Shown here: in pieces, positions 2,963 to 27,406 of the stretch
Layout: every line of letters begins with the position of its first letter
Numbering within the stretch: the first letter of the stretch is position 1
NCBI GenBank assembly: GCA_964460535.1
Contig: CAYWQI010000002.1
Location: 7,254-41,489, forward strand
Origin: Candidatus Woesearchaeota archaeon
Lineage (GTDB): Archaea; Nanobdellota; Nanobdellia; Pacearchaeales; GW2011-AR1
Direction of reading: 5' to 3'
DNA length: 34,236 nucleotides
Notes under the pieces: generated by a model
What the model saw: only the letters and a program-made list of their open reading frames with translations
The model's database searches: none
What the model was told of the DNA's origin: nothing
Translations under genes and position numbers: made by a program

Positions 2963-3442
2963 ATGAATCATTTATTTGTAGCAAGACACGGAAATTATAA
3001 TCTGGATAGAAGATTAGATTATTATGGTCGCCAGCAAATGGAAGTGTTAGGTAAAGCAATCAAAGAAATTTTGAATGGAGGTTCTGCTAGAGTTATTTCT
3101 TCAACAGCTCCTCGAGCGAGGGATAGTTCAGAAGTTTTAATTGAACAACTTGCTTTACCAGAATTTAAACAAGTTCCATATTTGTGGTCTGGAAATGATG
3201 CTCCAGAGGATAGCTTTTATTATAATCCAGACAGAGATAGATTGATGAAACTTGTGAATGAAAGAAGGGAGGGTGTTAACGGACTAGTAATGGTTACTCA
3301 TCTAGAGGTGGCAGAAGAATTACCTAGTTATTTCCTTAAAAAAGAATTGGGGAAAGATGAATATGTTGGAGAGATTTCAAAAGGACAAGCTGTTCATTTA
3401 GACTTAGAAGAAAAAAATTATCAGATTCTACCAAGAAGATAA
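2963..3442 (+). CDS. Histidine phosphatase superfamily protein (PGAM/SixA-like)
   Basis: The RHG motif (LFVARHGN) directly follows the ATG at 2963, with a downstream VTHLE histidine. The track start at 2930 adds a hydrophobic leader that is probably not translated. Confidence 0.6.
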   Translation: MNHLFVARHGNYNLDRRLDYYGRQQMEVLGKAIKEILNGGSARVISSTAPRARDSSEVLIEQLALPEFKQVPYLWSGNDAPEDSFYYNPDRDRLMKLVNERREGVNGLVMVTHLEVAEELPSYFLKKELGKDEYVGEISKGQAVHLDLEEKNYQILPRR

Positions 3443-3545
3443 TGTCTGCATTACAATTTAATTTTCTAGTTTTTGAAATATAACTTTTTTAAGAAATTAT
3501 TTTTTACTTTTGATGTTAAGGATTTTAATGACTTTTGAATTTTAT

Positions 3546-4940
3546 TCAACCTTTCATAACAGCTAGAGGAACAAGACGAACAACTTTTTTTGCAATATCT
3601 AATTTATCTGAAACAAGTGCAACTTCATCAATGTCCTTGTATGCTTGAGGAGCTTCTTCAGAAATACCTCTTGAACTTCCAGCTTCTATTTCAATGTTTT
3701 TTTCTTGAAGTTGTTTTTTGATGTCATTTGAATTTAATGTATGGATTGCTTTTCCTCTTGACATAACTCTTCCAGCTCCGTGTGTTGTTGAACTCCAGGA
3801 TAGTTCTTTAGATTTTTTTCCTCCAATTAACACATAACTTGCAGTTCCCATGCTTCCAGGAATAAGAACTGGTTGTCCTTCAAATGCTCTTGTGGCTCCT
3901 TTTCTATGAACACAAACTTTTTGTTTTTTTCCTTCTACTAGATGTTCTTCTATTTTTGCAATATTATGACAAACATCATAAATCAAATCTGCTTTTGAAT
4001 TTGGAAAGTGTTTTTCTAAAACTTCTCTTGTATAATTCAATATTATTTGTCTATTACAAAATGCAAAATTAACTGCACAATTCATTGCTGAAAGATATTC
4101 TTGTCCTTGTTTTGAATTTAAAGGTGCATAAACTAGTTCTTTGTCTGGAAGGTTTTTTGTTTCAGAAGGAAATTCTTCTTCAAAGTATTTTATATAATCA
4201 CTTGCTATTTGATGTCCTAAACCTCTAGAACCACAATGAATCATTATTAAGATATTGTCTTTATTTATTCCAAAAGTTTTTGCAGTTTGTTCATCAATAA
4301 TCTCATCTACTTTTTGAATTTCTAAAAAATGATTTCCAGCTCCGAGAGTTCCAAGTTGAGGCAATCCTCTTTTCAATGCTCTTTGAGAAATATTGTCTGG
4401 ATTTGCAGGAGAAATTTTTCCATTTTCTTCACAATTTTCTAAATCTTCTTTAACTCCCTTACCTTGTTGTATAGCCCATTCTGCTCCTAATGTTAAAACT
4501 TGTTTTAATTCTTCATAATTTATATTTTTTTCTTGTTTATGTCCTCTACCCACACCAGAAGGAATTGTTCTTTTTAAATCATGAAGAAATTCTTTTCTTT
4601 TTTTTAAAAATTCTTTCACAGAAACATTTGTTGAAATTAAACGAACTCCGCAATTAATATCAAAGCCAATGCCCCCAGGAATTATAATTCCTTTTTCAAT
4701 ATCAAAAGCAGCTACTCCTCCAATTGGGAAGCCATAACCGACATGCATATCACTCATACCAATTGAATGTCTCAATATTCCTGGAAGTGTTGCAACAGAT
4801 GCAATTTGTTTTAAAGAATCTTCTTCAATTGCTTCTAAAAGCTTATCTGAAAAAAATATCCTTCCAGGAACTTTCATCTTTCCTATTTTAGGCAATTCAT
4901 ATACATTCTCTTTTATTTTTTTGAGTTTTTCTTTATACAT
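3546..4940 (-). CDS. rtcB: RNA-splicing ligase RtcB
   Basis: 464 aa with contiguous RtcB motifs GFDINCGVR, GAGNHFLE, HCGSRGLGH, HRKGAT and HGAGR. There is no intein-sized insertion. The stop codon is TGA. Confidence 0.95.
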   Translation of the reverse strand: MYKEKLKKIKENVYELPKIGKMKVPGRIFFSDKLLEAIEEDSLKQIASVATLPGILRHSIGMSDMHVGYGFPIGGVAAFDIEKGIIIPGGIGFDINCGVRLISTNVSVKEFLKKRKEFLHDLKRTIPSGVGRGHKQEKNINYEELKQVLTLGAEWAIQQGKGVKEDLENCEENGKISPANPDNISQRALKRGLPQLGTLGAGNHFLEIQKVDEIIDEQTAKTFGINKDNILIMIHCGSRGLGHQIASDYIKYFEEEFPSETKNLPDKELVYAPLNSKQGQEYLSAMNCAVNFAFCNRQIILNYTREVLEKHFPNSKADLIYDVCHNIAKIEEHLVEGKKQKVCVHRKGATRAFEGQPVLIPGSMGTASYVLIGGKKSKELSWSSTTHGAGRVMSRGKAIHTLNSNDIKKQLQEKNIEIEAGSSRGISEEAPQAYKDIDEVALVSDKLDIAKKVVRLVPLAVMKG

Positions 4941-18447: not shown

Positions 18448-21162
18448 ATGAAAAAAGAGGAAAATAAAATTCTATGGCATTCCATTTCTGTTGAAGATAC
18501 TTTAAAGAATATTAATTCAAATGAAAAAGGTTTGCAAAAATCTGAAGCAAGAAAAAGACAGAATATCTATGGAAAAAATAAAATTTCAGAAAAAAAATCC
18601 ACTCCTTTGATTTTAAAATTTTTAAAACAATTTCATAACCCCTTGATTTATATTTTGTTTATTGCTATGACAATTTCATTTGTTTTTAAACATTTTATTG
18701 ATGGATATGTTATTTTTATTGTTATGTTTATAAATGCAATTATTGGATTTATCCAGGAGTATAAAGCAGAAAAATCTATTTCTGCATTAAAAAGATTAAT
18801 AATAACTTATGCCAAGGTTTATAGAGGAGGAGAATTATTGAAAGTTCCAGCTTCAGAATTAGTTCCAGGAGATGTGATTAGTTTAGAAGCAGGAGATAAA
18901 GTTCCTGCAGATTGTCGTATATTAAGTTGTAAAAATTTAAGAACACAAGAAGCTTCTTTAACAGGAGAATCATTACCCCAGGAAAAAAATATTAGGGTTG
19001 TTTCAGAAAAAGTTTCTCTTGGTGATAGGACAAATATGTTATTTATGTCTACTTCAGTTGTTTCTGGAAGTGCAAAAGCAGTTGTTGTAAAGATAGGAAA
19101 TAAAACTCAAATTGGAAAAGTTGCAAGTTCAATTCAGAAAGTTAAAAATCCCAAGATTCATATTAATGAGAAAGTTAGACTTCTTGCATTTCAGATGACT
19201 ATTTTTGCAAGTATTGGAGCATTTCTTGCTTTTTCTATTGGTTTTTTTATAAACAAGTTAGATTTTTTTGAAATATTTTTATTTACTGTAGCTAGTTTTG
19301 TTGGAGGAGTTCCAGAAGGTTTGCCTGCAATAATGGCTATTGTACTTGCTATTGGCGCAAGAAGAATGGCTAACAAACAAGCTGTAATAAGAAATTTATC
19401 TTCAGTAGAAACTCTCGGAGTTGCCACAATAATCGCAACTGACAAAACAGGAACTTTAACAAGTAATTCAATGAAATCAGAAAAAATAGTTTCTCTAGAA
19501 GGATTAAAAGATAAAAATAAGATAGTCTCAGTTTCTGGACAAGGATGGGAACCTATAGGAAAATTTTCTCAAAATAATAAATTTTTAAATCCTCTTGAAA
19601 ATCCTGAATTAAAAAAATTTCTAGAGATTTCAGGGTTATGTCATAATGGAAGGTTATTAAGAAAAGATGGAAATTATGAAATTATCGGTGATCCAACAGA
19701 AGTTTCACTTGCAGTTCTTGCAAAAAAAGCAGGTTTAAATAAAAAGAATTTAGAATCTAATTTTAAAATTATTGATGATTTTGCTTTTTCTTCAGATTTA
19801 AGATTTCGTGCAAGTTTAATTAAAGATAAAAAAAAGAACAAAAAAGAGATTTATACTTTAGGAGCATTTGAAGAAATCTTAAATAAATCTTCTTGGGTAT
19901 TTTCTCAAGGAAAAAAAATCTCTCTTGATAAAAAAACAAAAAAAGAGTTTTTAGATAAAGCATCAGAACTTTCTTCTCAAGGATTAAGAGTTCTTGCACT
20001 TGCTTATAGAGATGTTCCACACCATATTAATAATGTTTCTCCTAATTATGTTAAGGAATTGGTTCTTGTTGGTTTGGTTGGAATGAAAGACCCTCCTAAG
20101 AAGGGTGTTAAAGAAGCAGTTGAAAAAGCAAAAAAAGCAGGTATAAGGATTATAATGAAAACAGGAGACCATAAAGAAACAGCTTTGGCAATTGCAAAAG
20201 AAATTGGTTTAGTTGATAATAATTTTTCTGGAAAAGTTTTAACTGAATCTGATTTAGATAAATTAGATAAATGGCAATTTAAAGATGCAGTTAATAAATC
20301 AAATGTTTTTGCAAGAGTTACTCCAAAAACAAAATTGAAAATTATTCAAGCTTTACAAGAACAAGGAGAGATTGTTGCTATGACTGGTGATGGGATTAAT
20401 GATGCTCCTGCTTTAAAAAAAGCAGATATTGGAATTGCTATGGGAAAGGTTGGAACTGATGTTGCTCGAGAATCAAGTGAGGTTATCTTAACTGATGATA
20501 ATTTTGTTTCTATAGTTGATGCTGTTGAACAAGGAAGAATTGTTTTTCAGAATATAAGGCAAACAAGTTTTTTCTTAATTACTACAAATATTGCTGAAAG
20601 TGCTACTTTAGTTACTTCTTTGGCATTAAAGTTTCCATTACCTTTGTTACCTATACAACTTCTTTATTTAAATCTTGTAACTGATACTTTTCCAGGTATT
20701 GGACTTGCTATGGAACCAGGGCATTCTGAGGTTCTTGAAGAAAAACCTAGAAATAAGAAAGAGAATATTATTAATAAAGAACTTATTCCTTTTTTATTAA
20801 TTGTAGTTGGACTTATGGTTTTTTGCACAGTTCCAATTTTTCATTATTTTTTATCTCAAGGAATAAACAAGGCTCAAACAGCAGCATTTGTTTCAATGTC
20901 TTTTTTTCAATTATTTAATGTTTTTAATATGCGTTCATTAAAAAAATCTGCTTTTAAAATAGGTTTTTTAAGTAATAAATGGTTAAATTTTGGAATTTTA
21001 ATTTCATTTATATTAATGTTTCTAATAATATATATTCCATGGTTTGCAGAAATTTTTAATTTTGTTGCATTAGGTTTAAAAGAATTTATTTTTATTTTTT
21101 TAATAACTTCCACAGTATTTATTTTAGGTGAATTATATAAATTTTTTAGAATAAAAAAATAA
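18448..21162 (+). CDS. P-type cation-transporting ATPase (type II, Ca2+/cation pump-like)
   Basis: 904 aa with TGES, PEGLPA, the phosphorylation site DKTGTLT, KGAPE-region equivalents, TGDGINDAPALKKADIGIAMG and about 10 hydrophobic helices. Confidence 0.95.
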   Translation: MKKEENKILWHSISVEDTLKNINSNEKGLQKSEARKRQNIYGKNKISEKKSTPLILKFLKQFHNPLIYILFIAMTISFVFKHFIDGYVIFIVMFINAIIGFIQEYKAEKSISALKRLIITYAKVYRGGELLKVPASELVPGDVISLEAGDKVPADCRILSCKNLRTQEASLTGESLPQEKNIRVVSEKVSLGDRTNMLFMSTSVVSGSAKAVVVKIGNKTQIGKVASSIQKVKNPKIHINEKVRLLAFQMTIFASIGAFLAFSIGFFINKLDFFEIFLFTVASFVGGVPEGLPAIMAIVLAIGARRMANKQAVIRNLSSVETLGVATIIATDKTGTLTSNSMKSEKIVSLEGLKDKNKIVSVSGQGWEPIGKFSQNNKFLNPLENPELKKFLEISGLCHNGRLLRKDGNYEIIGDPTEVSLAVLAKKAGLNKKNLESNFKIIDDFAFSSDLRFRASLIKDKKKNKKEIYTLGAFEEILNKSSWVFSQGKKISLDKKTKKEFLDKASELSSQGLRVLALAYRDVPHHINNVSPNYVKELVLVGLVGMKDPPKKGVKEAVEKAKKAGIRIIMKTGDHKETALAIAKEIGLVDNNFSGKVLTESDLDKLDKWQFKDAVNKSNVFARVTPKTKLKIIQALQEQGEIVAMTGDGINDAPALKKADIGIAMGKVGTDVARESSEVILTDDNFVSIVDAVEQGRIVFQNIRQTSFFLITTNIAESATLVTSLALKFPLPLLPIQLLYLNLVTDTFPGIGLAMEPGHSEVLEEKPRNKKENIINKELIPFLLIVVGLMVFCTVPIFHYFLSQGINKAQTAAFVSMSFFQLFNVFNMRSLKKSAFKIGFLSNKWLNFGILISFILMFLIIYIPWFAEIFNFVALGLKEFIFIFLITSTVFILGELYKFFRIKK

Positions 21163-21189
21163 TTTTTAAAAAATAAATTTTTTATAGAA

Positions 21190-21217
21190 TTAACAATAAG
21201 AATGCAGGAGTTTCCAC
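21190..21217 (-). other. 23S pre-rRNA processing stem, 3' flank
   Basis: GCAGGAGTTTCCAC (21204-21217) is perfectly complementary to GTGGAAACTCCTGC (24979-24992). Imperfect pairing extends it. Confidence 0.8.
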
Positions 21218-22169
21218 AGAAGCAATACAATCATAAACAAATGAGGCTTTTAGTAGTTGTCTGCTGAATACGTCGGACGAATCCTTCGTACTTACACAGC
21301 AACTCTATCAACGTTGTCTTTTACAACGGCCTTTGTTGTCTCGTTTTGCGGAGAGCTTCGAGCTTAGATGCATTCAGCTCTTATCTCTACAATGCGTAGC
21401 TATGCAGCCTGCTATTAACAACTGCTCACCAGAGGCATCCGAGTCCTGTTCCTCTCGTACTAAAAACTCGTTCCACTCAAACAACAACACATCTAGTAGA
21501 TATCATACAAACTGTCTCGCGACGTTCTTAACCCAGCTAACGATCCCTTTTAATGTGTGAACTCCAACACCCTTGCACGCTTCTGCACGCGCAGGTTAGG
21601 GAGAGCCGACAGCGAAATACCAAACCGCCCCGTCAATACGGACTATCGGGGGCGACCAGCTTATTATCCTTGGGGTAACTTTTCTATCAGACACGGCACC
21701 TATTAAAAGTGCACGTGGGTTCACTAGGCCACTCTTACGAGCCTGCATTTCTTGCTTTTCAAAATACAGTCAGACAAACTTTTGCCCTTACACTCAACTC
21801 CAGATTTCCAAGCTGGATGAGTTTGTCTTTGGGTCCTATCGATATCTTTTCGACAGGGCGCCGCCCCAGCCAAACTGCCCGCCTGCTGCTGTCTTCATAA
21901 AGAATAAGAAAATTTAAACAAAACAGGTGGTATTACAAGATCGCTCCGTCTTAACCGAAATTAAGACATCGACGCTCCCACCTATACTAGGCATTTCGTT
22001 TAAACCCTCAACAACAAGTTGCAGTAAAGTTCCACAAGGTCTTTGCTTCCCACTAGATGTCCGTGGCCCTTGCACCACGTAGTATTTTCAGAAGGCACCA
22101 ATTAGGGACAGTGACAACCTCGTTAAACCATTCATGCAAGTCGCAATTCATACGACAAGGCATTAAGCT

Positions 22170-23064
22170 CATAATGTTAATTAGAATCTTTTTCAATGAT
22201 GATTCAATTCTTTACATCGCTGTAAAGTTCGGACTATATCTTCTACAATTTTAAATTATTTTGTAGTCGAGCATGTAGTCTCTGAGGATTCTGGAATTAA
22301 TTAAAAAAAGATTTTGAAAATAATCTATCTAATGAATCATTTATTGATATCTGAATAAACTCTTTAGGAGGAATTGCGTAAAATTCCTCTCCAGATTTAC
22401 TTGATGTGTGTTTTAATTTTCCAGATTCAAATACTTTTGAAATTGGAATCCACAACCAAGTTTTATAATCAGAATCTTCATTTGATAGAACATACCAAAT
22501 ATTTAAATTAAATTTTCTTTGTATTGAAGAATATTTTTTTGTTTCTTTAGCATCAATAGGATATGTTTTATATTCCTTATTTATCTTTTTGTATTTTGTG
22601 TCTACAAAAATAAAACCTAGATTAGGAATTAAAATCAAAAAATCAGGTCTTTTTCCACTGAAATATTTTTTAAATGCAATAGATAATGTTTGAGTATCTT
22701 GTTGCAAATAAAGATAAGGAATATTGTGTTTATTTAACCATTCCTTAAATTTGATTTCAGTTTCATTTCCCTTTCTTTTTTCTTCTTTTCCTATTTCCAT
22801 ATTCTTCCATTTTGAGATATTTATTTAAAACTTTTTATTCCAGCCTTTCCTGCTGATTGTCTGCACTCATCTAATTTTTACGCGAACTAACTATTTAAAT
22901 TTTAGTTATCGTTGTATAGTGAGATACTCAGATATTCCAGCATATAGCTCAATTTTCTCTATTAGTTTAACTTTTTAATTCAACAAATTCAACTGTTTAT
23001 TTACTATAACACCTAGAGCGTTTTTATCATTTTTCGACGATAAAAACGTAAGGCAGCTTTGTTC
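22170..23064 (-). mobile_element. Group I intron in 23S rRNA, about E. coli position 1931/1932, just 3' of helix 69
   Basis: The 5' exon ends UAAGGU. Intron nt 6-16, AAGCUGCCUUA, pairs with the 5' exon (P1, U.G at the splice site) and with the 3' exon AGCUU (P10). The intron ends in G. Core elements CAGAGACUACAUGCUCGAC (R-like) and GAAGAUAUAGUCCGAAC (S-like) lie 3' of the ORF. Confidence 0.8.
22297..22800 (-). CDS. Intron-encoded protein with PD-(D/E)xK nuclease-like motifs (candidate homing endonuclease)
   Basis: 167-aa ORF on the same strand as the rRNA and wholly inside the intron. GKRPDFLILIPNLGFIFVDTKYKK fits PD...(D/E)xK, and the N-terminal E-rich helix resembles Hjc/restriction-fold nucleases. 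There is no LAGLIDADG, GIY-YIG, HNH or His-Cys motif. Confidence 0.55.
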   Translation of the reverse strand: MEIGKEEKRKGNETEIKFKEWLNKHNIPYLYLQQDTQTLSIAFKKYFSGKRPDFLILIPNLGFIFVDTKYKKINKEYKTYPIDAKETKKYSSIQRKFNLNIWYVLSNEDSDYKTWLWIPISKVFESGKLKHTSSKSGEEFYAIPPKEFIQISINDSLDRLFSKSFFN

Positions 23065-24978
23065 ACCTTAAGAGCGTCATAGTTACGCCCGCCGTTTAAT
23101 GGGCCTTAGCTCCCTTGAAAAGGAGTTTTAGACACCACCACTGGGCAGGTCTCGCCAAGTATACACGTCATTTCTGATTAGCACTTGGCTATGTTTTTGG
23201 TAAACAGTCGGGCCGTCCTTGTTACTGAGATCTATTAATGCACTCCTATTTCTAAAAGCACAAAAATAGACACCCCTTAAACCTAAGTTACAGGGCTAAC
23301 TTGCTGAATTCCCTTAATTGGTTTAATCTTTCATGTCTTAGCTTTTTAAGCCAGAGCACCAGTGCTGGTTATGGGTACAGCTAATTAAATCCGTTCAGTA
23401 AATAACTTTTCACTGGCTCTTGGAATCAGCAATTTTGTTCAAAAAATTTATTTATATCTAAGCATTACGCTCCATAAATTTCTTTTTTGAAACACTCTTC
23501 CGAGTGCTTACTTATCCAAAAGCATTATTTACAAAAGATTTAATTAGTTCAGGAATATTAACCTGATGTCCATCATTGTTCTCGATTAAGGAACAACTAA
23601 GGCGCTGACTAACCCTTGGCTAACATATATTGCCAAGGAAACCTTGCTCTTGCGACATTTTGCGTTCTCAGCAAAATCACATCTTACTATTACCAGGATT
23701 CTCATTACTATTCGTTCCATTCCTCCTTTAAGAGAAACTTCTGCACAAATAGTACGCCTGTTTACCAGTTTTCTAAAAATAGAAAACTCTAAAGTATCGG
23801 TATTATGCTTAGCCCCGTCCATTTTCAAGGCCCTAAACCTCAATAGGTGAGCTGTTACGCTTTCTTTAAATGATAGCTGCTTCTGGGCTTACATCCCTAC
23901 TGTCTCAGGTTTAAGACACTCTTCATGACACTTAGCATAAATTTAAGGACCTTAACTTTAGTCTCCCTTGTTCGGGTCTTGGAACAGTATCTTACATACC
24001 GCCCCTTATTCCTGTCTTACGCAGTCAATAGATTCTGAGTTGAAAAAATCTCCGTAAGCATTAGCCCCTGCGAGATTTATTCGTACTTTACACCATTAAC
24101 AAACTAGACAAGACTATGCGTAGGCATATTTCAACAGGAACCAGCCATTGCCGAATTAGATAAGCTTTTCACCCCTATTCACAGATCATCCAAGTGCATG
24201 TCCACAACAACGGTTCAGGCCTCCATCCCTCTTTCGAAAGACTTCACCTTGTCCATGAATAGATCATCCGGCTTCAGGTCTTTACCATATGACTAACGCC
24301 TTTTCAGACTTGCTTTCGCTTTGGTTACCCTTTAAAGGTTAGCCTCGCCATATAGAAAAACTCCCTGGCCCGTTTTTCGAAACGTACGTTACAATCCCTT
24401 AGGACAGTAACTAACTGTAACTGTTAGATTTCAAATCTTTTCACACTCTATTAAGAGTACTTTTCAGCTTTCCCTCGCGGTACTAGTGCTCTATCGGACT
24501 TTGATTTTATTTAGGGTTACCTGTTAATCCAGGCATATTCAGACACCCAATCCAGGATGCCCTACTCTTTTTGAAAATCCTTCCTCATTCTAAATCTACG
24601 GGACTATCACCCTCTATAGTGTTCCATTCCAGGAAACTTTGAATCAAATGATAGGAATTCATTTTCACCACATCTCTATTCTTATTACTAAGAAAGATTC
24701 AGCTTGCCCTAATCCCTTTTCGCTCTCTGCTAATAAGGGAATAATTATTTATTTTCTTTTCCTACTGGTACTAAGATGTTTCAATTCCCAGTGTATCTTA
24801 TCTGACAAATGCCAGACTATTCAGAAATCTCTGGATCAATATCTGCATGCGATTCCCCAGAGCTTTTCGCAGCTTGCCACGTCCTTCATCAGAATCAAAA
24901 CCAAGCTATCCATCTAACAGCATAAAATATGTTTGCTGATTGTCTTTTTACTTTTTCTAAAAGAAAAAGTGCCAACTA

Positions 24979-25007
24979 GTGGAAACTCCTGCTATTGTCA
25001 TTGTTAT
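24979..25007 (-). other. 23S pre-rRNA processing stem, 5' flank
   Basis: Complementary to 21190-21217. Confidence 0.8.
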
Positions 25008-25151
25008 TATGAAACACTTTTTGTGTTGTAATAACTCTTTTAGATCCCATATTTTATATGGAACCCTTTCACTTCCGAATTTTGTCTTCGGATTTTTTGT
25101 GAATATGATTTGTGATTGAATATTTTTTAACTAAATAATCTTGTAAGAAAA

Positions 25152-25159
25152 TTTATAAA
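25152..25159 (+). promoter_or_regulatory. Palindromic TATA box (TTTATAAA) about 29 nt upstream of tRNA-Ala
   Basis: TTTATAAA is preceded by the purine-rich AGAAAA (BRE-like). Spacing to the tRNA 5' end at 25184 fits an archaeal promoter. The same palindrome could also serve the minus strand towards the 23S gene. Confidence 0.4.
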
Positions 25160-25183
25160 CCCTCTAAAACTTTAATTTCATAA

Positions 25184-25256
25184 GGGCCCGTTGTCCAATG
25201 GTTTAAGATACCTCCCTTGCACGGAGGAGATCCGTGTTCGATTCACGGCGGGTCCA
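25184..25256 (+). tRNA. tRNA-Ala(UGC), encoded antisense to the flanking rRNA genes
   Basis: Acceptor GGGCCCG/CGGGTCC with a G3:U70 pair. Anticodon arm CCTCC-CTTGCAC-GGAGG (TGC at 25218-25220), T arm CCGTG-TTCGATT-CACGG, discriminator A. It is followed by a T7 run. The cloverleaf forms only on the + strand. Confidence 0.85.
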
Positions 25257-25330
25257 TTTTTTTATACCCTTTTTAATCCATGAATTTTTTTGAGGTAAAA
25301 CCTTGAACATTATTTCTAACAAGATTAGTA

Positions 25331-25355
25331 TGCAAAAGCAATTATGTTTGTTGTA
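25331..25355 (-). other. 16S pre-rRNA processing stem, 3' flank
   Basis: TGCAAAAGCAATTATGTTTGTTGTA is complementary, allowing G.U pairs, to CTACAACTAACATGATTGCTTTTGCA at 26961-26986. Confidence 0.75.
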
Positions 25356-25390
25356 TTTTTATAATTATGAGTCATTTCAATAATTTAAAT

Positions 25391-26836
25391 AAGGAGGTAA
25401 TCCATCTGCAGGTTCCCCTACAGATACCTTGTGACGACTTAACCTACCTTGTCTACCCATGGCTCTCCTTCGAAAAGTTTCACCATAAATAAACTCGGTT
25501 GGTTTGACGGGCAGTGTGTGCAAGAGACCGTGACATATTCACCGTTTGTTGATAACGAACGATTACTACCGATTCCAACGTCATGAGGCTGAGTTGCAAA
25601 CCTCAATCTGAACTAAGACAGACTTTAAGGGATTAGCTTCTCCTTTCAGAGTTGCATCTCGTTGTATCTGCCATTGACGCGCGCGTGTTGCCTAGGGGAT
25701 TCGGGCTGTACTCACCTAACGTAGCCCACACTTTCATCCCAGTTACCCGGGCAATCTGTATATAGTACACATAGTAAATATACATGTGGGTCTTGCCTGT
25801 TACCTGATTTAACAGGTCATCTCACGACACAGGCTGACGTCGGCCATGCTGCTCCTCTCAGCGTGTCAGGTAAGCCCTTTAGACTGACCTTCATTCTGCT
25901 GTCGCTCCTGGTGAGGTTCACGGTGTAGAATCTAATTGAACCGCACGCGTCACCGGTTGTAGTGTCTCCCCGCCAATTCCTTTAAGTTTCAGCCTTGCGA
26001 CTATACTTCCCAGGTAGTACACTCTTCGCCTTCGCTACAGCACTAATACCTCTCGAAGAGGTACTAATGTTTAGTGTACAGTGTTTACTGCTAGGACTAC
26101 AGGGGTATCTAATCCCTTTTGCGCCCCTAGCCTTCATCCCTTACTGTCAGAACTGTTCTCGTAAGGTGCCTTCGCTATTGTTAGTCCGTTTGGGATTAAC
26201 ACATTTTACCGCTACTCCAAACGTACTCCTTACGTCTCCCAGTCTCTAGCTAAATAGTATTTCCTGCACGCCCTATCTTTAAGAGATAAGATTTCACAGG
26301 AAACTTAGATAGCAAGCTACGGATGTTTTAGACCCAATAAAAATGGCTGCGACTTGGACCGCGAGTATTACCGCGGCGGCTGGCACTCGTCTTACCCAGT
26401 CCTTATTCGCCAAACTTTTTACATTTGGCAAAAGTTTTCCAATTGGAAAACACTCTGACTCACTCTATCACACTTTAGTGCATTGTAAAAGATGCCTAGC
26501 TGCTGCACCCCGTAGGGCTGGGAATAGTGTCTCAGATTCCCTCTCAGGGCTTCTCCGCTAAGAGCCCTTACAGATCTATGGCTTGGTGGGCTATTACCCC
26601 GCCAACAACCTAATCCGCCGCAGCCCCATCCTTAAGCTCGAATTTGAGAGATAAGTCTTTCCAGGGCATATCTCTTATCAGGTATTAGCCTCAGTTTCCC
26701 GAGGTTATCCCTGACTTAAGGGTAGGTTAGCTACGTGTTACTGAGCAGTTCGCTTTCCTCTGATAAATCAAAGAAAAAACTTGCATGCCTAAGCGCAAGT
26801 CAGAGAGCCGCAGCCGCCAGCAGGATCAACTGGATT
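25391..26836 (-). rRNA. rrs: 16S rRNA
   Basis: The reverse complement begins ATCCAGTTGATCCTGCTGGCGG and ends GGTATCTGTAGGGGAACCTGCAGATGGATTACCTCCTT. It contains GTGCCAGCCGCCGCGGTAATAC (archaeal form) and the 1492 region AAGTCGTCACAAGGTA. Confidence 0.95.
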
Positions 26837-26960
26837 TAAACAATTTCATCTAACTAATTTTATTTTGTTATCTATTGCGCAATTTGAATTATAAGATAAA
26901 CAAATTACTTCACACAGAATTCCTTAACGACTGAATTGGCTCTAGTTAATTATAAAAGAA

Positions 26961-26986
26961 CTACAACTAACATGATTGCTTTTGCA
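26961..26986 (-). other. 16S pre-rRNA processing stem, 5' flank
   Basis: Complementary to 25331-25355. Confidence 0.75.
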
Positions 26987-27406
26987 TACCTCATACCTTA
27001 ACATTTGTTGTATCATTAATTTTACTAATAATATGTAAAGTTTTCATTAAGGCACTCATCTTAGTTATAAAACTAGCTCAAAAATAGTTTATAAATGTTT
27101 TGGTGAGATTTATGTCGAGAAATTAAGAGTTTACCGAGGAATAAATTAGAAGAGAATTATAATAATTCATTTAAACTCTAATAAGATTAAATTAATAGGT
27201 ATAAAATAAAAATTTAGATAAGATGAAAAAGATTTTAATTCTGCAATTTGAGATATTTCTGGGTTTGTATATATAAATTATGTAAGAAGTTTTGAATTAA
27301 AATTAAGTCTTTTTCTAGCAATTTTTGAAAGTAAAAAAGAATTGGATTTCTACATTGATGAAGGTGAACTCACAAAAGGATTTAGAAGATAATTTTATTC
27401 TTTAAT

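Follow-up and report, generated by a model that had tools for sequence, protein, structure and literature searches.

In a Candidatus Woesearchaeota archaeon (order Pacearchaeales, family GW2011-AR1), the tRNA-Ala(UGC) gene between the 16S and 23S ribosomal RNA (rRNA) genes is encoded on the strand opposite to both. We analysed the 34,236-nucleotide (nt) stretch of contig CAYWQI010000002.1 that carries this locus (the window) together with related genomes, and the antisense orientation of the spacer tRNA-Ala is confirmed as real biology: the same arrangement is present in three other species-level genomes, and the orientation is therefore more than a chance call. Our preferred reading, to which we assign a probability of about 0.6, is that 16S and 23S form a linked locus holding an inverted, self-contained tRNA-Ala cassette. 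The cassette would have been flipped through the short inverted-repeat arms at its sides, the tRNA would be made from its own promoter, and the rRNAs would be made by read-through of the cassette.

The window belongs to a metagenome-assembled genome (MAG) of 0.89 Mb in 89 contigs, 88.5% complete and with about 27% G+C (G000; G, L and C numbers denote the genomes, loci and contigs compared). Both rRNA genes lie on the minus strand, separated by a spacer of 452 nt, and Rfam places them, with slightly different ends (Table 1), where an earlier reading made from the sequence only had put them, at 25391–26836 (16S) and 21236–24935 (23S). Run on the rRNA region, ARAGORN calls a single tRNA, a tRNA-Ala with anticodon TGC, on the plus strand only; its Rfam score of 55.6 bits compares with a gathering score of 29. 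The Rfam search of 20800–27400 at E ≤ 1 returned no tRNA-like match on the minus strand and no other RNA in the spacer. The two methods agree with the sequence-only reading, which had folded the tRNA on the plus strand alone, against 16S and 23S, and had proposed a tRNA predictor as a check. The features it had pointed out, a G3:U70 pair, the T loop TTCGATT and the anticodon loop CTTGCAC, are all in the sequence, along with an A73 discriminator; G3:U70 and A73 are tRNA-Ala identity features. The gene has no encoded CCA and no intron, is the sole tRNA-Ala among the 30 tRNA genes that ARAGORN finds in the MAG, and shows 100% identity to the spacer tRNA of a relative, G211, whose orientation is canonical.

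This tRNA appears to carry its own signals for transcription. With tRNA-Ala held out, we derived a promoter matrix of 16 columns from upstream stretches of 60 nt, using the 28 other tRNA genes of G000 that have this much sequence before them. The matrix takes the form of an A-rich B recognition element (BRE) with a TATA box after it, and the majority of its sites start at −37 to −41. The held-out tRNA-Ala site scores 10.7 bits and starts at −39, the modal position, and sites of at least this quality occur at a frequency of 1.9e-4 per position genome-wide. Its TATA box, TTTATAAA, is a perfect palindrome separated by 24 nt from the tRNA 5′ end, and a T7 run follows directly on the discriminator A; both the TATA box of its own and the adjoining T7 that had been claimed for this tRNA are thus in place. 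Further plus-strand T-runs stand before the 16S 3′ end (T5 at 25270–25274 and T7 at 25285–25291), and on this strand the spacer holds nine runs of five or more T against 3.0 expected, a number reached in 2 of 5,000 shuffles. It is right, on this sequence evidence, to describe the tRNA-Ala as an autonomous gene with its own predicted promoter and terminator.

An antisense spacer tRNA-Ala is found in four of the 87 genomes of the family with a readable orientation (G000, G189, G006 and G261). Orientation was read by ARAGORN in 31 of these genomes (three antisense) and in another 34 (one antisense), and from BLAST strands in the remaining 22 (none antisense). No antisense case occurs among 14 genomes from other families of the order, two of which gave a same-strand call of another tRNA type. 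At order level 40 loci were examined, and three of them have no tRNA call; their spacer-side sequence is 129 nt, 4 nt and, at L135, 1,559 nt long. The two calls of another type are a tRNA-Arg(GCG) at L127 (G223, contig C1) and an intron-containing tRNA-Ser(UGA) at L017 (G039, contig C3), both from other families; introns may have misled the calls, or the tRNA may really have been replaced. Introns of 17–71 nt are called by ARAGORN in the spacer tRNA-Ala of many relatives, for example at L006, L007, L010, L076, L080 and L082, and also at L084, L085, L088, L090, L091 and L094.

The flipped genomes fall into at least three events. G189, which belongs to another genus of the same family, shows the arrangement of the window on its contig C3 (L073; 23S on the minus strand at 1–2568, tRNA-Ala on the plus strand at 2837–2909 and 16S on the minus strand at 3030–4460) and is collinear with window positions 25150–25700 at 82% identity over 551 nt. 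The spacers of the two genomes align over the repeat arm next to 16S and the stretch that directly follows this arm, and also over the antisense tRNA and its promoter; the shared stretch after the arm suggests a single flip common to G000 and G189. In G006 the 16S gene is on the plus strand and the tRNA on the minus strand. Its congener G210 is canonical, and between the two only the tRNA and its promoter are inverted, the outer flanks being collinear. G261 is likewise antisense next to ten canonical loci from nine congeners, and G298, the nearest relative of it that was compared, has a tRNA 98.7% identical in the opposite orientation. Since both G006 and G261 are flipped beside canonical congeners, at least three flips are required.

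The sequence-only reading had proposed a comparison with relatives to see whether the inversion is a lineage trait; what emerges is a recurrent minority state. Inheritance of the trait by descent is not borne out by two 16S trees, which are star-like and do not group G000, G189 and G006; four partial rows (G210, G091, G055 and G165) were dropped from one of the trees. One grouping speaks against the single event that we suggest for G000 and G189: G189 pairs not with G000 but with the canonical G067, with 93/98 support. In the first tree G006 pairs weakly with G021. Approximately unbiased (AU) tests reject neither a clade of G000 and G189 (p 0.267) nor one of G000, G189 and G006 (p 0.124).

The antisense tRNA is not an assembly artefact. 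The alternative, that the tRNA segment was misoriented or that a chimeric contig was joined through the conserved tRNA, has some material behind it: the source genome is a MAG of many contigs, and relatives from the same habitat with identical or near-identical tRNAs (such as G211) could join assembly graphs. On the side of the tRNA promoter, the junction of 23S with the spacer is present in Logan contigs from three runs, each of a different study (X1 matches 24600–25258 exactly, X2 matches 24901–25161 exactly and X3 matches 24776–25132 with two differences). Coverage on the other side counts against our reading. No Logan contig of runs X1–X4 covers 25297–25378, from the tRNA 3′ flank to 16S, and the only contig that passes through the tRNA, X1 record 1 (1,757 nt), leaves the window at 25258, passes through 466 unmatched letters and reaches this 23S 5′ end once more, now on the opposite strand and differing solely by indels. 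That record may be a chimera through the shared tRNA, or a fold-back. For the right-hand junction the evidence thus comes from the MAG and G189. An exact search with two spacer words found no match in genome or metagenome contigs.

Several observations nonetheless make an artefact extremely improbable. A chimera mediated by the tRNA keeps the direction of the tRNA and therefore cannot create the two non-canonical flanks of the window, the 23S-proximal promoter and the 16S-proximal 3′ flank, which are both present and mutually consistent. The left junction recurs in the three studies mentioned above, and G189, from another genus and an assembly of four contigs, is collinear across 16S, spacer, antisense tRNA and promoter; a like arrangement exists in G006 and in G261. 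The repeat arms around the cassette are only 14–16 nt long, with mismatches. Arms of this length are shorter than assembler word sizes.

Those arms suggest how the cassette was turned. In the window they measure 15 nt, are 93% complementary and lie 162 nt apart, and they are the only inverted pair reported in 25080–25400. Inverted repeats flank the cassette in all four flipped genomes: the pair of G189 stands at the homologous place (14 nt, 93%) and differs in sequence from that of the window in both arms, and the pairs of G006 and G261 measure 14 nt (100%) and 16 nt (75%), respectively. Canonical relatives have the same elements. The 16S-proximal arm is the counterpart of ancestral sequence upstream of the tRNA promoter in G015, G024, G211, G067 and G298; in G015, G024 and G298 this counterpart runs straight into the BRE and TATA box of the tRNA, and canonical relatives such as these three have a complementary T-rich copy 3′ of the tRNA. 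In the flipped genomes the arms are at their canonical places and only the interior is reversed.

The flanks of canonical loci also pair better with each other than with those of other loci. For canonical loci that have at least 75 nt before the tRNA, cognate and non-cognate flanks average −11.33 versus −8.66 kcal/mol over 24 loci, and −10.53 versus −8.85 kcal/mol over a larger set of 54; in both tests the cognate mean was matched in 0 of 20,000 permutations. The better cognate pairing is carried by a minority of loci. A flank helix of −14 kcal/mol or lower is present in 10 of the 54 cognate canonical loci versus 8.7% of non-cognate pairs, and shuffles of single genomes (100-nt flanks, 60 shuffles each) gave mostly unremarkable z-scores, with pairing as good as the native one in 9/60 for G000, 1/60 for G189 and 2/60 for G006. 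Both results count against our preferred reading. The complementarity of the arms may be kept either by pairing in the precursor rRNA (pre-rRNA) or by exchange between the arms.

The predicted promoter before the tRNA characterises the family and did not result from the flip, because most spacer tRNA-Ala loci with a promoter-like site of their own are in the canonical orientation. Of 28 family spacers, 17 have a site of at least 8 bits that starts at −37 to −41 relative to the tRNA-Ala, and in a wider set 30 of 64 loci have such a site at −42 to −36, where chance would give about 0.5. The site is kept in canonical relatives, and that of G189 scores 12.0 bits at −38. Two points weigh against our reading: the matrix was trained on G000 only, and flipped G261 has neither a promoter at the standard distance nor a T-run after its tRNA.

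Recombination between the repeat arms, or template switching from one to the other, is the route that we propose for the flip. One arm would contribute an A-rich side for the BRE and its partner a T-rich side for the terminator, and a complete unit of promoter, tRNA and terminator would therefore result in either orientation. The flip could, as an alternative, still be live, the cassette continuing to invert in populations through recombination of its arms so that both orientations coexist. Inverted repeats around the cassette in all four flipped genomes, flips that separate species in two genera, and arm sequences that change in concert between G000 and G189, as repeated exchange between arms would yield, are what such a switch would lead one to expect. 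We nevertheless regard a live switch as very unlikely: the arms are very short and imperfect, G000 and G189 keep the same orientation at 82% identity, and no contig shows the window's own flanks with the cassette in the other orientation, though contigs drop rare variants. No recombinase was seen adjoining the locus, and no search aimed at recombinases was made.

In our preferred reading, of a cassette flipped between its arms, the tRNA-Ala would be made only from its own plus-strand promoter, by a transcript that would start no more than a few nt from the 5′ end of the mature tRNA, stop at the T7 run, and be trimmed and receive its CCA. The 16S and 23S rRNAs would still come from one minus-strand transcript, starting from the promoter-like site at 27087–27102 and running through the antisense cassette; this is the best minus-strand site in 20900–27300 and lies 251–266 nt before 16S. 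Each rRNA would then be released through its own processing helix, and the repeat arms could pair in the read-through RNA. A helix for each rRNA had been claimed from the sequence, and co-folding of the flanks upholds it, with 52 intermolecular pairs (−61.3 kcal/mol) for 16S and 27 (−51.7 kcal/mol) for 23S.

Such read-through from the 16S promoter is more likely, on the predicted signals, than separate transcription of the two rRNAs, because the minus strand of the spacer has no promoter-like site of 7.5 bits or more, the TATA box scores only 5.2 bits in this direction, and there is no run of five or more T from 16S to the cassette. The score of 5.2 bits, the same in G000 and in G189, is explained by GAGGG occupying the place of the A-rich BRE. 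In the rRNA sense the window's spacer has a single run of five or more T, 29 nt before 23S, and the spacer of G189 has none. Given the base composition, this scarcity is not significant (0.66 expected, with one or none in 87% of shuffles), which lessens its weight as an argument for read-through.

The sequence-only reading had favoured another course, in which the palindromic TATA box at 25152–25159 fires both ways, driving tRNA-Ala on the plus strand and a separate pre-23S on the minus strand, with the 16S transcript ending before the cassette. The palindrome itself is perfect, as that reading had said; the distance from the box to the start of the 23S processing stem (about 25000) is 152 nt where about 145 nt had been given. 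The box lies 227 nt before 23S, a distance within the range of −204 to −320 at which promoter-like sites reaching 8 bits or more precede 23S in relatives (G016, G003, G009, G017, G075, G115, G155, G138, G006 and G210). The shared box of G261, also a flipped genome, reaches 8.5 bits at −282 when read in the rRNA sense. Canonical G015, G101, G202 and G080 have an rRNA-sense T-run directly after the tRNA, and in them 23S would therefore need a start of its own. There is precedent, too, for initiation in both directions from one TATA box in Pyrococcus furiosus, for which passages of PMC6640164 describe bidirectional promoters with starts 49–50 bp apart and a BRE–TATA–BRE motif. The window resembles that case in having a symmetric TATA box between divergent RNA genes in an AT-rich genome. 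It differs in that the P. furiosus motif has a BRE on both sides, as given in those passages, whereas the box of the window has an A-rich BRE towards the tRNA alone (10.7 versus 5.2 bits).

The G-rich sequence where an A-rich BRE is expected, in G000 and G189 alike, and the lack of any run of five or more T in the rRNA sense from 16S to the cassette argue against this course. So does the complementarity of the arms, which persists in G000 and G189 despite their different sequences; arm pairing, if selected in RNA, needs a transcript that spans the whole cassette. We consider a divergent promoter unlikely, and the earlier claims that the palindrome serves as a 23S promoter and that 16S and 23S are transcribed separately find no support here, without being refuted.

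Table 1. Features of the rRNA locus, in window coordinates.
Feature	Position	Strand	Evidence or score
tRNA-Ala(UGC) gene, antisense to both rRNAs	25184..25256	+	ARAGORN; Rfam RF00005, 55.6 bits
BRE/TATA promoter-like site of the tRNA (A-rich BRE, then TTTATAAA at 25152–25159)	25145..25160	+	10.7 bits
T7 run, likely tRNA terminator	25257..25263	+	sequence; directly after discriminator A
23S-proximal inverted-repeat arm, overlapping the BRE	25136..25150		repeat search
16S-proximal inverted-repeat arm, at the base of the 16S processing helix	25313..25327		repeat search
16S rRNA gene	25392..26836	-	Rfam RF01959 (SSU_rRNA_archaea), 1302 bits
23S rRNA gene	21230..24939	-	Rfam RF02540 (LSU_rRNA_archaea), 1923.5 bits
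Promoter-like site before 16S, likely promoter of the whole rRNA unit	27087..27102	-	12.4 bits
16S processing helix, 5′ strand, pairing with 25327–25385	26926..26990	-	flank co-fold; also self-match
16S processing helix, 3′ strand	25327..25385	-	flank co-fold
23S processing helix, 5′ strand, pairing with 21191–21223	24971..25000	-	flank co-fold
23S processing helix, 3′ strand	21191..21223	-	flank co-fold
T6 and T7 runs, 56 and 70 nt beyond the 3′ end of 23S, where the rRNA transcript is likely to end	21153..21173	-	sequence

Between the tRNA cassette and the 23S helix, at 25100–25135, the window has a short motif that is conserved between genera and also present in G189, G067, G211, G015, G298 and G261. 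It takes the form TTAGTTAA, then within about 30 nt CACAAATCA(T/C)ATTCAC, and has no promoter-level score. No miniature inverted-repeat transposable element (MITE) or other genome repeat was found within the spacer. The 23S gene is about 700 nt longer than the RF02540 model, which is attributed to a putative intron near 22170–23064, and G+C is low at 22001–23000; the Rfam search of 20800–27400 also returned a sub-threshold DUF805b match inside 23S. Rfam found no 5S rRNA gene in the 34-kb window, and 5S therefore does not adjoin the 23S gene. Convergent with the 23S 3′ end, on the plus strand at 18448–21162, lies a gene for a P-type cation ATPase of 904 amino acids. An identification of this gene as alanyl-tRNA synthetase was rejected. 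The nearest among the matches listed in genome contigs have 33–40% identity and come nearly all from bacterial MAGs, apart from one labelled Thermoplasmata; these matches may point to gene transfer.

Among the relatives, the genus of G006 and G210 (g6) has wide gaps between 16S and 23S, of 3.1 kb in G006 (L034, contig C42, 767–3849) and 4.9 kb in G210 (L075, contig C12, 626–5530). The gaps hold protein open reading frames that are mostly unshared between the species, including in G006 two of 244 and 415 amino acids that run opposite to the rRNA genes. Before 23S stands a strong promoter-like site, 204 nt away in G006 (14.7 bits) and 279 nt away in G210 (12.3 bits), and from their sequence the two rRNA loci look truly split. 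G009 (L035, contig C9, 772–1028) has a group I intron in 23S (Rfam RF00028, 76.6 bits) and a 16S–23S spacer of 1.65 kb with a canonical tRNA.

The 16S–23S spacer of Borrelia is kilobases long and counts as unlinked. Passages of PMC4370689 describe a tRNA-Ile there, between rrs and the 23S–5S repeats, that is transcribed opposite to the rRNAs, and the window is like it in having a classic spacer tRNA on the strand opposite to 16S and 23S. Unlike the bacterial case, it belongs to an archaeon and combines a 452-nt spacer, a single tRNA and a flanking inverted repeat. For archaea, passages of PMC8997704 distinguish rRNA units with tRNA-Ala between the small-subunit (SSU) and large-subunit (LSU) genes, units without a tRNA, and unlinked genes, the last being common in DPANN. 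The window resembles the canonical euryarchaeal-type 16S–tRNA-Ala–23S unit, as presented there, in that 16S and 23S share a strand and enclose a 452-nt spacer with tRNA-Ala(UGC), each rRNA has a separate processing helix, and a promoter-like site stands about 250 nt before 16S. It departs from that unit in that the tRNA lies on the other strand, with a predicted promoter and terminator of its own; being on the opposite strand, it cannot be cut from the pre-rRNA. About half of the family has a promoter-like site before the tRNA even in the canonical orientation, a further departure from the unit as those passages give it.

Full-text searches found no description of an archaeal antisense spacer tRNA in an rRNA locus; the text of PMC8997704 contains neither 'opposite' nor 'orientation', and its supplementary tables on how rRNA genes are organised might list cases. 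What is added here, as read from the sequences compared, is an inverted repeat around the cassette and repeated flips in a family where the spacer tRNA often has its own promoter-like site.

A layout of 16S, tRNA and 23S is as a rule read as proving that the spacer tRNA arises as a by-product when pre-rRNA is processed. Judged by its predicted signals, the tRNA of the window is a gene in its own right, with an orientation that is labile in evolution while the rRNA genes stay 452 nt apart. Calls of linkage by distance alone hide such functional uncoupling: under the criterion of Brewer et al. (bioRxiv 10.1101/705046), where, in the passages concerned, 'unlinked' means a spacer of more than 1500 bp, the locus of the window is linked and those of G006 (3.1 kb) and G210 (4.9 kb) are unlinked. 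The pairs G261/G298 and G006/G210 are natural experiments usable for the study of head-on transcription in the cell's most transcribed locus, and for the steps by which rRNA operons break up in archaea with small genomes.

More tentatively, and with rather less than even confidence, we suggest that the spacer tRNA-Ala of this DPANN family is an orientation-neutral module, whose arms double as BRE and terminator sides and pair in the pre-rRNA, which has undergone at least three harmless flips, and whose operon stands midway to unlinked genes. If so, the interior could flip without harm to the tRNA gene or the rRNA precursor, and the rRNA genes, though physically linked, would already be autonomous units. 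In the flipped genomes every pre-rRNA would then carry the full complement of the cell's only detected tRNA-Ala, and this antisense pre-rRNA could tie the supply of tRNA-Ala to rRNA synthesis.

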